Shown here: in pieces, positions 32,270 through 36,572 of the stretch
Layout of the letters: each line of letters opens with the position of its first letter
Position numbering within the stretch: the first letter of the stretch is position 1
Assembly: GCA_965222075.1 (NCBI GenBank)
Contig: OZ244937.1
Coordinates: forward strand, 4,128,001 to 4,192,000
DNA from: Candidatus Latescibacterota bacterium
Lineage (GTDB): Bacteria; Latescibacterota; UBA2968; GCA-2709665
Reading direction: 5' to 3'
Length of the DNA: 64,000 bases
Notes under the pieces: model-generated
Databases searched by the model: none
Seen by the model: the letters and a program-made list of their open reading frames with translations, nothing else
What the model was told of the DNA's origin: nothing
Translations under genes and position numbers: made by a program

Positions 32270-33404
32270 TTATGCAGCCAGCCGGATTCGCTGCATTCGT
32301 TCTTCCAAGTCCTGCCTTGTAAAGCGCCAGTTGAAAGGTTCGGCAGTGAGATTATAGTATTTCTCAAAGCCCAAGATCCTAACTTCCATCGCCTGTCGAT
32401 CTGCCAAGTCATTGGGCGTGAGTGCTTTTCTTTGCAGGATCGAGAAATAGATCTCAATCTGGTTGAGCCAACTGGCATGGATGGGCAGATGAACAGCGAT
32501 GGCATTTTTATAGGCATCGGCAAGCCGTTTAGGGAACGTAGTGGTGTAATGAGAGGATCCATTATCCACAATCCAGAAGACCCGGTCTGCCGAAGCATAA
32601 GGCTCCTGTTCCATCACCAAGTCCACCAGCTTTTGAAAAGGCACGATGCCGGTTTTTTCATCCACACGCCCAAAGATGTGCCCTGAGAACACATCCAGTG
32701 CAGATAGATAGGCCACTGTGCCCATCCGTTTGTAGTCATTTTCCATACGAATGGGTTTGCCACAATCAGGTGGCAATGTGGCAAACTCTCGGGCTAAGAT
32801 CTGGAGTTGGGATTTTTCATCGGCACAGATGACGAAGTCTTTCTTGCCCAGGGGAACACCCTCCCATATGCCTTGATACAGGTCCAGAATGCGACTGGCT
32901 TTCTCTAAAAAGTTGGGATCTTTGATATGAAGCCAGGAACGATGATACCAGGGACGAAGGGCATCCCTGTTGAGAATACGCCAAATCGTTGTGGGTGAGA
33001 TTGAAGTGATCAACGCACACCTCAACACTTCCTGTTGAATCTCAAACAGGCTGAATCGAGACAGAGGCAGACCCCGCTGTGCAGGCAGTTGACAAGCGAT
33101 GGCTTTGACCTCACTGACTTGCACAGGGGGAAAAAGTGGGCGGTCGCCCACTGCGGGGAAGATCGTCCAAAGTGAAGCATTGTTCTACCCACCTTTTTCG
33201 CCACTTCTGCGCTGTGGGGGAACTCACCCCCCCACGGTCGGCTAACTTCTGGTTGCCTATGGCTGGACCCTCTGCTAAAGCGACCACCATCTTTGCCCGT
33301 TGCACCTGACTTTGAGGTGCGTTACGCTGACGGATGATTCTTTGGGCTTGGGCAACTTGAGCTTTTGTGAAGCGGGGTTGATATTGGGGAAGCGGACCTG
33401 ACAT
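32270..33404 (-). CDS. IS630 transposase, orfA (33111-33404) plus orfB (32270-33151), probable programmed -1 frameshift
   Basis: HTH and RSGRP in orfA; ADEK, VDNGSSH and SWLNQIE in orfB; slippery TTTTTCCCCC at 33126-33135. Confidence 0.85.
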
Positions 33405-33489
33405 TATACACCTCCTTTACCCATTAGATGATCCGAAGAATAAAAAATTAGACGGTCTCTGCCTTCGATTCTATTTTCCTTATCGTTTA

Positions 33490-33514
33490 CCTGTCTGCCA
33501 TCTGCACAGGCAGG
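33490..33514. repeat. 25-bp palindromic mini-insertion CCTGTCTGCCATCTGCACAGGCAGG
   Basis: Inserted at TA^TC, immediately before the transposase stop codon. Confidence 0.85.
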
Positions 33515-33663
33515 TCCGAGGATTCGGTCCAGTTGCACCAAGCCTACAACGGCTCCTGCAATCATCGGGAACAGCCCCGCTCCCAGGCGATAATCTTCGC
33601 GAAGGATGCGCCATCCTTTGATGCGACGGATGCTGTGTTCCACATAAATACGCTGTTGGGCTA

Positions 33664-33690
33664 CCTGTCTGCGTGCGACGCACAGGCAGG
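33664..33690. repeat. 27-bp palindromic mini-insertion CCTGTCTGCGTGCGACGCACAGGCAGG
   Basis: Inserted at TA^TC, in frame; removal gives ENRQIAQQRIYVEH. Confidence 0.85.
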
Positions 33691-33803
33691 TCTGCCTGTT
33701 CTCCAGACGTTGTTCTGAGGTGAGTTCACCCCCCTTTGGCTTTTTATGGGGTGAGATGATCTGGGGATGGGCTTGACTCTGATAGCCTTTATCTCCCAGT
33801 TTA

Positions 33804-33828
33804 CCTGTCTGCCATCTGCACAGGCAGG
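33804..33828. repeat. 25-bp palindromic mini-insertion, identical to 33490-33514
   Basis: Inserted at TA^TC, frameshifting; removal gives FPNADKLGDKGY. Confidence 0.85.
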
Positions 33829-34653
33829 TCGGCATTGGGAAATTGGGAGTCCACGCCACTTTCTTCGTAAACTCGAATATCAGCTTTGGGTCCACGATGG
33901 CCTGCATCCACGCTGAGGATCTCTCCCTTTTTATCTGTGGCCACTTGGGTCTTGATCGTGTGGCGCTTGCGCTTACCCGAGTAGACCTGCCTTTGTCTGT
34001 GGTCCACAGAAGGCCTGCAAATGGGCGTTTCAAAGCTGTCAATTAGAACCCGATCCACCTCATCGGGATGCCAGGAAGGGTCGCTTTTCTTCCACTTCTT
34101 CTCCCCATCAAAGCGCTGAGTGGGGCAGACCGCTTGCAGAATCGGCACCACTTCGTGAAAGGTGTTTTCGGAGGTGTCCGCACTCACACCAAACAGTTGC
34201 CCCACCAACGCGTGGGATACGTTGTGACGCAAATAGAGCAAACTCATCAACACCTCTTGATAGGGCCTTAACCGTCGCTTGCGTCCTCCCCCTACCCTAC
34301 GCTTGCGATCAGGACGTGATGCTTGGGCTTGCTGGCGACGTTCTATCATCACCGGCAACACAGCCTCCAGCAGTTGGGACAAAGCCACTGGCGTAAGACC
34401 AAACAGAGCACGGATCTTTCCCGGATGGGTCGTATCAAGGGTGTGCAGATTCATCATCGCTGGCTCCTTGCGTAAATAGTCAAACAACCTACTCCTGAAG
34501 TAGCAGTGAGACAGTATTACGCAAATGGCTTGCCAAAGTCCAGCACTATTTCTCGGATCATCTATTGGAGTGAGGTGTATAACATAACTCTATTTCTCTT
34601 TCTACACAACCTCATGTGTATTTGCGAAATTGACCACTAGGGGTTCATTTTTC

Positions 34654-34852: not shown

Positions 34853-36572
34853 GAGTGTGTAGGAAATCGCGGGGGTATCAACTGACTGTAAAATCGATAG
34901 TTTTTGAAGTATGAAAATTTGATAGGACGCCTATATTGGCAAACATCCAGAACACTATCTCATGTTTGATCAAAAAGGAGCCCTATCATGATGACAATGT
35001 ACGAAAAGGAAGCCTTGTTTGAAAGCCTAGATGACACATTTTCTGAGATCAAGGCATATCTTATAGGAGCTATAGACCGAGAAGAACTCCATGGGGTTGA
35101 GCACCATCTGTTTCGCCAGATGCAGCGCTTGGGTCGTGGTTTTCTGGAGGCCTTTGTTGCTCTGTCGGGCACGGGATATGAAGCTGGCAATCCAGTGCTG
35201 AGTGAAGAAGGGCATAAAATGGAGTATAAGGGAACCGAGGCGGAGGGTTCGCCCTATATGTCCATCTTTGGAGAAATCAGGATCTACCGTGCAGCCTATG
35301 CCCATCCTGCTGGTGGGAGGGTATATCCCATCGATGCGCAACTGAATCTGCCAGCACATAAATACTCTTACTTGCTTTTGAAGTGGCTACAAGCTTCAAG
35401 CACACAACAGGATTTTCGCAGCGCGGTCAACCGATTCAACGAGATCTTCGATTTTTCCTTTTTCCCGGATCTGCCTCAGCGTCAGGGCCTACCCATTGCG
35501 GAGTATATCGAGCCTTTCTATGAGCAGGTTGAAGCGCCACCCCTACAATCAGAAAGCAGTCATATAGCCATCAGCGCCGATTGTAAGGGCGTACGTATCC
35601 TGAAAAGTAAACGGGAAGAGACAAAGGAAGAACCGCCTGCCAAACCCCGTCGGGGCAAAGGAGAAAAGCCCGGCATCAAGAAAGATGCGGTGGTCGTCAC
35701 AGACTTTTCATTCGACCCACACGCACGCGATTCTGAAGAAATCGTCAAAGGCTTGCTTTCCCAGTTCACAAAAGAAGAACAAGAACAGAAAAAACAGGAT
35801 CGGAAATGTCGCCGAGAAGAAGGTCTGCCTGAGCCTCGGGTACCACACAATAAGCACATCTTTGCGACTCTCCAGGGCAAAAAAGCCGCCTTCGACCATA
35901 TGCTTGAGCACGTCCAGAAGCGAGATCCCCAGGGCCAAAAACTACTGATCGCGCTACTGGATGGCGATCCTTATCTGGAGGATCGGTTGCTCAAAGACCT
36001 GAACATCCACGGCATGGAGGATCAACTCGATGCGCTGATCCTGGATATCATCCATGCCAGTGAATACCTCTGGGATGTGGGCACAGCGCTCTATGGCGAA
36101 AAAGGACCTGAACGAATCAAGTGGATCGAAGAAAAGCTCTATGCCCTCCTGGAGGGTAAAGTCGGCTACCTCATCGGGGGACTACGCCAGATGCTGACCA
36201 AAAACCAAGACCGGCTCACCCAGCCTCAAAAGAAGGCTCTAAAAAAAACCATCATCTACTTCGATAACCACCAACATATGATGCACTACGACGTCTACCT
36301 CAAGAAAGGTTACCCGATTGCTACAGGCGTAGTCGAAGGCACCTGCGGCTCTCTCGTCAAAGACCGGATGGAGCAATCAGGCATGCGATGGTCCATCAAC
36401 GGTGCTCAGGCTGTCTTGGCTCAGCGCGCCGTTGTGAAAAATGGCGACTGGAATGACTTCTTTACATACTACATTGACTCCGAACGTGACCGACTCTACC
36501 CAACTGTATATGAGAGAGTCGCACCTTACCAAAAAGCTGCTTAAACCTGCTCCCGTGAACTCCTACACACTC
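34853..36572 (+). mobile_element. ISKra4-family insertion sequence
   Basis: TIRs GAGTGTGTAGGA...CGGG; 9-bp TSD AAATGGATT at 34844-52 and 36573-81. Confidence 0.9.
34988..36544 (+). CDS. ISKra4-family transposase
   Basis: SADCKGV, LLDGD, LDIIHASEYLW and GYPIATGVVEGTC...RM..SGMRW motifs. Confidence 0.9.
   Translation: MMTMYEKEALFESLDDTFSEIKAYLIGAIDREELHGVEHHLFRQMQRLGRGFLEAFVALSGTGYEAGNPVLSEEGHKMEYKGTEAEGSPYMSIFGEIRIYRAAYAHPAGGRVYPIDAQLNLPAHKYSYLLLKWLQASSTQQDFRSAVNRFNEIFDFSFFPDLPQRQGLPIAEYIEPFYEQVEAPPLQSESSHIAISADCKGVRILKSKREETKEEPPAKPRRGKGEKPGIKKDAVVVTDFSFDPHARDSEEIVKGLLSQFTKEEQEQKKQDRKCRREEGLPEPRVPHNKHIFATLQGKKAAFDHMLEHVQKRDPQGQKLLIALLDGDPYLEDRLLKDLNIHGMEDQLDALILDIIHASEYLWDVGTALYGEKGPERIKWIEEKLYALLEGKVGYLIGGLRQMLTKNQDRLTQPQKKALKKTIIYFDNHQHMMHYDVYLKKGYPIATGVVEGTCGSLVKDRMEQSGMRWSINGAQAVLAQRAVVKNGDWNDFFTYYIDSERDRLYPTVYERVAPYQKAA

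Follow-up and report, generated by a model that had tools for sequence, protein, structure and literature searches.

Three hairpin inserts in one transposase gene

The window examined here is a 64-kb stretch of a Latescibacterota genome (the term refers throughout to the whole stretch of DNA that was analyzed). It contains an IS5-type insertion sequence (IS) whose transposase gene is interrupted by three very short hairpin inserts, and these inserts and the dispersed element to which they belong are the subject of this report. The IS occupies 1144 bp of the minus strand (33425 to 34568, the extent that it shares with a second copy in the same genome) and has the features of the IS5 group, namely the Pfam domains HTH_Tnp_4 and DDE_Tnp_4, terminal inverted repeats (TAGATGATCCGA..TCGGATCATCTA), and a short target duplication. 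In contigs of other sequencing runs the IS-free site is seen, with 33422 joined to 34564 and 3 letters shared. The coding region consists of an N-terminal open reading frame (ORF) of 228 amino acids (aa) on the minus strand (33801 to 34487), truncated by a frameshift, and of an interrupted remainder on the same strand, delimited by alignment (33487 to 33803), which ends in a displaced TAA stop (33487 to 33489).

All three inserts read as hairpins on the plus strand and belong to the arm type that we call T-type below. The first is a 25-mer (CCTGTCTG..CAGGCAGG) at 33490 to 33514, at the junction TTTA^TCCG (the caret marks the point of entry), and being last in gene order it parts the GGA codon from the TAA stop. 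A 27-mer at 33664 to 33690, junction GCTA^TCTG, lies in frame. The third, at 33804 to 33828 and junction TTTA^TCGG, has the same sequence as the 25-mer at 33490; it comes first in gene order and shifts the frame after residue 228. The pattern CCTGTCTGC-N(3-9)-GCACAGGCAGG matched the 64-kb window exactly three times, always on the plus strand, and matched none of 100 shuffles of it. The left arm has no further occurrence in the window, where the right arm recurs only with a mismatch.

A genome of the same family but another genus (G004) contains at least eight listed copies of the same IS, ∼76 to 78% identical and each 1071 to 1075 bp long. When the window IS was aligned with two uninterrupted copies from G004, the copies from G004 showed three clean gaps of 25, 27, and 25 columns against it. 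The empty sites read CCGA^TAAA, CAGA^TAGC (ATC in G004), and CGGA^TAAA in the sense of the gene, corresponding to TTTA^TCGG, GCTA^TCTG, and TTTA^TCCG on the plus strand. The neighboring bases forbid any shift of the insert boundaries, and the target bases are neither duplicated nor deleted. Without the hairpins the IS measures about 1064 to 1067 bp and the frame is restored through ..FPNADKLGDKGY.. and ..ENRQIAQQRIYVEH.. to ..GGA TAA. The damage is also visible at the level of the protein domain, since DDE_Tnp_4 is matched over positions 1 to 69 of 158 in the remaining ORF compared to 1 to 157 in the G004 protein.

Contigs assembled from runs of four different studies include the inserts and none skips them, and a 392-nucleotide (nt) RNA-library contig from an independent run bridges insert 3 without a single difference; we therefore exclude an assembly or adapter artifact. 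Insert 3 is the only one bridged with 31 letters on each side, as contigs on the window stop at the hairpins of inserts 1 and 2. A sequence-only reading of this DNA had described three palindromic inserts in one orientation at these positions, entered precisely and without target site duplication, one of them shifting the frame and another displacing the stop, with no further copy in the 64 kb. The pattern search, the alignment with uninterrupted IS copies, the domain match, and the contigs bear out this description.

A dispersed family of covarying hairpins

The genome of the window (G000; 5.36 Mb, 59% G+C, single contig) contains 102 sites matching CCTGYCTG-N(5-15)-CAGRCAGG compared to none for the reversed control pattern, and 225 sites of 19 to 39 nt when the loop range was widened to 3 to 24 nt. 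What had looked from the window like an affair of one transposase gene is instead a family with about 225 members, and single-copy DNA holds 72% of these. Two arm types can be distinguished, a C-type (CCTGCCTGC..GCAGGCAGG) and a T-type (CCTGTCTGC..GCACAGGCAGG), the latter accounting for 89 of 207 copies. The 27-nt insert at 33664 to 33690 is the commonest T-type sequence genome-wide.

The members have in common a constant basal stem of 8 to 9 bp (CCTG[C/T]CTG(C) against (G)CAG[G/A]CAGG) and, on one side, a bulge of 2 nt; the inner stem-loop varies. Among 41 distinct 33-mers, the inner pair 10-22 is CG in 25, AT in 7, GC in 2, and GT in 3, and the pair 12-20 is CG in 15, AT in 10, TA in 4, and GC in 2. 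Four inner pairs are formed in 32 to 39 of the 41 sequences, compared to 2 to 21 of 41 after a one-position shift of the partner, with the orientation of each 33-mer picked by best pairing and thus mildly biased toward the structure. The constant arms and varying loop noticed in the window hold for the whole family, with the addition that the inner stem covaries. Hairpin copies also nest, in one another's loops as well as in those of related hairpins. Readings of the family as a CRISPR repeat, an attC or dif site, or a terminator were dropped because copies are single, dispersed, and located inside ORFs and because orthologous sites are empty; Rfam returned only chance matches, far below threshold.

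Several other repeats keep company with the element. A related hairpin family with TTGCCTGC..GCAGGCAA arms is a frequent landing site, and tandem 16-nt units (CCTGTCTGCCTGCTTG) stand immediately upstream of some T-type copies (G000:C1:80100, 90325, 319697, and 553056). A larger repeat of ∼150 bp, present at 12 places in G000 (e.g., 1155662, 2396314, and 4342541), combines a terminator-like GGCCTTTTTCTTG..CAAGAAAAAGGCC hairpin with the commonest 33-mer.

Empty orthologous sites and recent mobility

A genome of the same genus (G001) has syntenic DNA 91 to 96% identical to G000. Four 20-kb regions compared between the two contain 22 element sites, of which 18 could not be judged as G001 has no aligned sequence on both sides; the remaining 4 are all empty in G001. 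Two of them lie in the same 1952-aa UvrA-like ORF and hold a 36-mer (TGTA^TCGG) and a 27-mer with a 33-mer in its loop (GGCG^TCCC). The other two hold a 39-mer in an ABC-transporter membrane ORF (CCCA^TCGG) and a 33-mer (CCCT^TCGG). A further site is filled in the relative G021 and empty in the relative G009. In all, eight pairs of filled and empty sites are available and none shows a target duplication.

The hairpin element has thus been active since G000 split from a relative that is still 91 to 96% identical. Identical copies with different flanks also stand close together, as with the two 25-mers of the window IS (314 bp apart) and the pairs at 4022890/4023022 and 3450109/3450179, which suggests reinsertion nearby. 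We regard it as very probable that these hairpins are true insertions of a mobile mini-element.

Target site and orientation

In 80 nonredundant T-type copies, the base before the element is A in 45 and G in 30, and the base after it is T in 44 and C in 31, so that positions −1 and +1 are usually complementary. Position +2 is C in 39, G in 29, and never T, and G predominates at position +4 (63 of 80). The motif ^TC[CGT]G is found on at least one side of 62 of the 225 copies, compared to 3.3% of random junctions, and at 6 of the 8 verified filled/empty sites, the other two being ^TCCC and ^TCCT. Of the four TATC[CGT]G sites that the unbroken window IS would offer, three hold a hairpin, whereas genome-wide 11 are filled and 7653 are free. 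The element faces either way relative to the motif. The target TA^TCNG proposed from the window alone thus stands as a preference and falls as a rule, since 163 of 225 copies lack the motif. The flank logo reads R^Y-S-N-G and contains no GTAG or CGTC tag.

Reading frames of host genes

Copies tend to leave reading frames intact. Lengths are a multiple of 3 in 180 of 225 copies and in 82 of 109 distinct sequences, the main classes being 33 nt (93 copies), 27 nt (50), 30 nt (19), and 36 nt (13), and 204 of the 225 copies are free of stop codons in all six frames. Of all copies, 64% fall within a frame that is at least 200 aa long and runs on uninterrupted across the copy, compared to 92% of random positions. 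Multiples of 3 are more common among copies in open frames of at least 300 aa (93 of 107) than elsewhere (87 of 118; P = 0.019), and Pfam confirmed a double UvrA-like protein and PurL as in-frame hosts. Because stems grow by two bases and yet the length classes step by three, these classes point to selection for frame neutrality. Frame-keeping, stop-free copies survive in genes, which probably accounts for the lengths of 27, 30, 33, 36, and 39 nt.

Distribution across genomes, phyla, and viral contigs

The 53 genomes of the order have between 0 and 198 copies each, with a patchy spread inside genera. In the genus g2, for example, the counts are 0, 1, 2, 2, 3, 6, 13, 19, 21, 29, 66, 89, 105, 182, and 184. 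The rest of the phylum, of which 168 genomes were searched, has 0 to 6 copies. Genomes with 50 copies or more include G000, G002, G003, G009, G019, G020, G021, G024, and G171; counts of 3 or fewer are found in the close relatives G004, G006, G007, G010, and G014 to G016 and in most of the genus g6. The exact T-type pattern, with its 20 fixed bases, occurs in at least 119 stretches of a species-representative collection, labeled as many phyla; the relatives of the window are labeled Latescibacterota there. Two metagenome-assembled genomes (MAGs) of other phyla contain 52 and 24 copies, although single MAG contigs may be misbinned, and two complete chromosomes contain 8 and 3. The pattern is also found in 54 stretches of IMG/VR viral contigs, for which a rough hand estimate of chance matches is a few at most.

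The reversed control pattern matched 54 times in G117 and 9 times each in G061 and G062, all of the same phylum. These three genomes must therefore hold another hairpin family, with GGACRGAC..GTCYGTCC arms.

The second IS copy and the surroundings of the window IS

The only other copy of the IS in G000 lies at 1604153 to 1605296. Its flanks differ, it contains the same three hairpins, and the two copies differ from each other once, at the edge. Since both carry all three hairpins, the IS was copied after the three hits. It was duplicated despite its broken transposase gene and no intact copy is present in G000, so it may have been mobilized by a copy since lost, or the two copies may have been homogenized by gene conversion.

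The IS5-type element had itself invaded an older one. A two-ORF IS630-like transposase (DDE_3; 32270 to 33404, minus strand), identified by Pfam and from contigs, belongs to an IS630-like element with overlapping ORFs that is split by the IS (window 32270 to 33404 and 34564 to 34640). Contigs of four runs contain the undisrupted 33422/34564 junction, and a matching uninterrupted stretch is found at G000:5344790 to 5344991. Adjoining the IS is a 518-aa ORF (34988 to 36544) that by eye resembles a hairpin-riddled UPF0236-type ORF at G000:3463690 to 3465237 and may be another transposase.

Proposed mechanism and search for the enzyme

We propose that the family is a non-autonomous, ultrasmall (19 to 39 nt) mobile hairpin element that is moved in trans as a folded single strand with HUH-like chemistry, and we give this statement as a whole a probability of roughly 55%. 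Its mechanistic part, a single-strand HUH-like step, we would put at slightly under an even chance. An enzyme encoded elsewhere would recognize the folded single-stranded hairpin, cut at its foot, and join it to a target that is nicked or single-stranded, in a cut-and-join reaction akin to those of HUH enzymes (IS200/IS605, RAYT, or Helitron-type). HUH-type chemistry is, to our knowledge, the only well-studied one that gives such products. What the sites show is that the element enters between two adjacent bases and in either orientation, that its favored step lies immediately 5′ of TC(C/G/T)G, with TA^TCGG as the best target, and that it frequently lands in hairpin loops. The window IS, struck three times and twice by the same 25-mer, may have been dispensable DNA that offered good targets and was perhaps unusually exposed, and its transposase gene was broken as a result.

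A number of results weigh against this proposal. With respect to the hairpin itself, the folding energies of individual copies are unexceptional (DNA z-scores of −0.7 to −1.6), so that the case for a hairpin rests on the covariation of the family. Not all copies are independent events either, as the commonest 33-mer has 22 copies, of which 12 occupy the same position within the ∼150-bp repeat described above. With respect to integration, the 163 copies without the target motif have already been mentioned, and orientation relative to the replichores is only weakly skewed for the T-type (28 plus and 37 minus on one replichore, 21 plus and 12 minus on the other) and unskewed for the C-type, while IS200/IS605 elements have a strong lagging-strand bias.

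The other group of adverse results concerns the enzyme. PF01797 (Y1_Tnp) was searched in the 53 genomes of the order and in five genomes rich in the element, and PF04986 and PF01548 were searched in the five rich genomes. Y1_Tnp is present in 34 of the 53 genomes and is unrelated to copy number; a 97%-complete MAG with 105 copies (G019) has no PF01797 match. Among the five rich genomes, Y2_Tnp was found only as fragments and not at all in G009 or G024, and IS110 was not found in G000, G024, or G172. All-against-all clustering of ORFs at 80 loci of other phyla and 54 viral loci revealed no gene family recurring beside the element, the top clusters being response-regulator-like proteins and ordinary phage genes. 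The family and neighborhood searches for Y1, Y2, and IS110 and at these 80 and 54 loci thus identified no writer. The sequence-only reading had left the writer unnamed, and it still has no candidate after these searches; its suggestion that an HUH or IS110 gene might co-occur with the element found no support, as none tracks it.

G000 itself contains one IS200-type TnpA, at 2071883 to 2072350, one broken TnpA, and two genes, at 3242104 to 3242868 and 1858861 to 1859469, resembling those of REP-associated tyrosine transposases (RAYTs; REP, repetitive extragenic palindrome), and a home-made RAYT-like/IS200 profile run against all of its six-frame ORFs returned only these known genes. Both RAYT-like genes are bracketed by other, GTAG-tagged hairpins, and those of six relatives are bracketed by CGAGGGCA..TGCCCTCG or GCGGGCG..CGCCCGC hairpins, which likewise count against a link between these genes and the element, as does the finding that the element is not near any of 11 RAYT-like loci in the foreign-phylum MAGs G171 and G172. 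Two further leads were discarded. A weak Y1 match (E = 0.11) beside the copy at G000:611351 was judged to be due to chance, and clusters in which pairs of elements seemed to bracket a gene proved to be other IS elements or ordinary genes.

The RAYT-like genes have features of their own. One in G000 (255 aa; unit at G000:C1:3241500 to 3242970), missed by PF01797 at E ≤ 0.001 and found by tblastn, has two small upstream ORFs and is bracketed by ∼130-bp direct repeats of GTAG-tagged hairpins, making up a classical REP-RAYT unit of another family. A 203-aa RAYT-like ORF at G000:C1:1857897 to 1859469 follows two truncated copies of itself, each with an in-frame GTAGGGGC..GCCCCTAC hairpin pair in its coding sequence. 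A second RAYT-like type (loci L059 to L064 in six relatives) is ∼175 aa long, is 43 to 47% identical to the first, and lies amid many CGAGGGCA-GGA-TGCCCTCG hairpins; the six genomes contain 29 to 184 CCTG copies, and the CCTG element is not the repeat that flanks it. RAYT-like ORFs are also found in frame within open frames of 1203 to 1441 aa (L029 and L063 in G021, L059 in G002, L060 in G020, and L061 in G003, the last with two domains in one frame), which from their N-terminal sequence we take to begin like a DUF1156-type DNA methylase. These could represent either a recurrent insertion site or a conserved fusion. In G172, the distance between a nested T-type pair and a broken gene of the IS91 type (Y2_Tnp; G172:C35:10831 to 11664) is ∼500 bp, a single case that may be due to chance.

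Alternative explanations

A bolder reading is that the element is the work of an undescribed DNA writer, unrelated to Y1/Y2 HUH enzymes and to IS110, which inserts hairpins of 19 to 39 nt scarlessly at N^TCSG, has spread (perhaps by phages) through many phyla, acts with special intensity on IS and other mobile DNA, and has given rise to a family selected for invisibility to the reading frame. We consider this conceivable and doubtful.

An ordinary REP/RAYT system, in which a RAYT-like tyrosine transposase moves CCTG hairpins besides or instead of the hairpins that flank it, seems unlikely to us, for all that it would explain. The size, copy number, and palindromy of the element fit REPs, and PMC3733652 documents both REPs within genes and REP families that lack a transposase of their own. 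G000 contains two RAYT-like genes and an IS200-type TnpA, a RAYT-like match is present in four of the five richest genomes of the genus g2, and a CCTG hairpin stands within ∼40 bp of each of the two RAYT-like genes of G021. These two copies are, however, secondary insertions into or beside the other hairpins, and one of their sites is empty in G009. Strict-pattern copies are absent beside the orthologous genes in G003, G009, G018, and G020, the GTAG or CGTC tag is missing from the element, the hairpins on either side of each RAYT-like gene are of another family, and G019 maintains its 105 copies without a Y1 match.

The concentration of copies in mobile DNA raises the possibility of a host-encoded, defense-like writer that preferentially marks or breaks foreign and mobile DNA such as IS elements and phages, copies in host genes being collateral. 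The flanks of 64 of the 225 copies are multicopy compared to 108 of 1000 random positions, a 2.6-fold enrichment for which copies within duplicated elements have been tallied repeatedly. Copies are crowded into three IS families: the window IS with 3 in 1.07 kb, a DDE_Tnp_1 element with 7 in 1.7 kb, and a UPF0236-type transposase gene with 5 in 0.8 kb. The filling of three of the four best target sites in the window IS, against the genome-wide ratio given above, and the occurrence of the motif in 54 viral-contig stretches would also be in line with such a role. On the other hand, the 72% of copies in single-copy DNA include in-frame copies in repair and purine genes, the IS was still duplicated after being hit, with three hairpins in both of its copies, and a candidate gene is lacking. 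The enrichment is real, yet it is as expected of neutral accumulation in dispensable DNA together with reinsertion nearby; since these would give the same enrichment, a dedicated role against mobile DNA is not shown. The idea that the hairpins serve to inactivate mobile DNA, raised when only the window was known, therefore holds as to the enrichment and fails as to the role, and we rate a defense-like writer as improbable.

An RNA route, by which a transcribed hairpin is reverse-transcribed and then ligated or reverse-spliced into DNA, appears very improbable. A covarying stem with G-T pairs on one strand would suit RNA folding, copies lie in transcribed genes, and insert 3 is carried by an RNA-library contig, in which DNA carry-over is possible. 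The two T-type mismatches, though, are symmetric, giving one wobble and one mismatch on either strand, and thus single out neither; there is no poly(A), no primer-like tail, and no duplication, and Rfam has no match.

It is scarcely credible that the hairpins are excision footprints of a larger transposon with terminal inverted repeats starting CCTGCCTG, although constant outer arms around a variable middle do resemble two joined termini. Outside hairpins, the arms CCTGCCTG and CCTGTCTG number 276 and 135, close to what base composition predicts (151 and 102) once longer or nested copies are added, and no two arms were found to enclose a transposase-bearing segment of gene size. Pairing and covariation extend to the inner parts, the same complete sequences turn up at many unrelated places and in other phyla, and the clusters sit within other IS elements. 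Finally, the chance of an assembly, adapter, or chimera artifact is negligible, for while library preparation can yield short palindromes, the inserts are in contigs of four studies with none skipping them, both IS copies of a single-contig genome carry them, and the many independently assembled genomes contain hundreds of copies with a target preference and covariation.

Implications

A mobile element consisting of a single gene-less hairpin stands at the lower size limit of transposable DNA, in a field in which the enzymology of REP-like and SDR-like repeats (SDR, small dispersed repeat) is largely open after four decades. The material is unusually clean, with base-exact empty and filled sites in an IS and in housekeeping genes, a readable target preference, nearby reinsertion, nesting, three-step lengths, and a sequence shared across phyla and viral contigs; it should therefore be possible to find the writer by comparing the gene content of genomes rich and poor in the element and to test it with oligonucleotides. 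An enzyme that inserts short DNA without a scar, guided by sequence, would have practical value as well. In annotation, the inserts matter in that they break genes (transposase) or lengthen them (UvrA-like and PurL, whose products would gain 9 to 13 residues), and they fragment short-read assemblies.

Comparison with known systems

Literature searches by arm sequence returned only papers on primers and human repeats, those on small dispersed repeats, in-frame palindromic elements, and RAYTs returned analogues and nothing on the CCTG hairpin sequence, and a term search of a 2026 preprint on the mining of noncoding elements gave nothing on CCTG hairpins. As far as these searches reach, the sequence family, the base-exact empty sites, the three-base quantization of lengths, the saturation of target sites in an IS, and the occurrence across phyla and in viral contigs are not in print.

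The closest analogues are those named from the window alone, REP/RAYT systems and the SDRs of cyanobacteria. REPs are GTAG- and CGTC-tagged palindromes associated with RAYTs (Di Nocera et al., 2013, PMC3733652; Bertels and Rainey, 2011, PMC3116915). PMC3733652 describes REP cleavage by RAYT and a CGTC REP super-family recorded as transposase-less, and its supplementary tables list REPs inside ORFs, which may bear on how rare in-frame copies are. Because in-gene REPs and transposase-less REP families are in print there, the element is of a kind already known. These sources also depict REPs and REPINs as imperfect palindromes of 20 to 40 nt in tens to hundreds of copies, patchy, thought to be mobile, and in some cases located in genes, including repair genes. 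The element is likewise a short, high-copy, imperfect palindrome (225 copies of 19 to 39 nt with a covarying stem). It ends in CCTG and CAGG in place of the GTAG or CGTC tag, no cognate RAYT is flanked by it, and, where REPs are predominantly extragenic, 64% of its copies fall within open frames that reach 200 aa. Compared to REPINs, its copies are mostly single and nested and not inverted doublets, and identical sequences occur across phyla and in viral contigs.

The SDRs of Nostocaceae, described in 2008 by Elhai and colleagues, are reportedly hairpins of 21 to 27 nt with compensating changes, nested and recently mobile, whose enzyme is not known, and SDR5 is said to be tied to the HIP1 octamer. 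On this description, the element resembles SDRs as a tiny, dispersed, nested repeat whose hairpin is kept by compensating changes. We know of no mention of in-frame length quantization or of cross-phylum and viral spread in the description of SDRs. HIP1 is not enriched in G000, with 111 sites against ∼150 estimated by hand from base composition. According to PMC5861425, SDRs are found only in Nostocaceae. The relatives of the window genome, in contrast, are labeled Latescibacterota, and the sequence of the element probably differs from those of SDRs as well.

With IS200/IS605 elements and their miniature derivatives the family shares insertion without target duplication (eight filled/empty pairs), a preference for a short adjoining sequence, and, on our proposal, recognition of a hairpin and single-strand chemistry. 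IS200/IS605 elements have two different subterminal hairpins with flanking guide and cleavage sequences and a strong strand bias, whereas a single hairpin makes up the entire CCTG element, its orientation is only weakly skewed, and it is not accompanied by TnpA, as with the 105 copies of G019 without a Y1 match. Helitrons and IS91 elements are kilobases long, encode a Rep/helicase or a Y2 transposase, both HUH enzymes, insert without duplication between host A and T or by a tetranucleotide, and have a hairpin near one end; duplication-free insertion between A and T and the hairpin are points of likeness, while only broken Y2 fragments were found here. Rickettsia palindromic elements, at roughly 100 to 150 bp and confined to Rickettsia, differ from an element of 19 to 39 nt found across phyla. 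Among these systems, the element works like a REP or an SDR, and it parts from the REPs in its end tag, its lack of a cognate RAYT, and its location inside genes.

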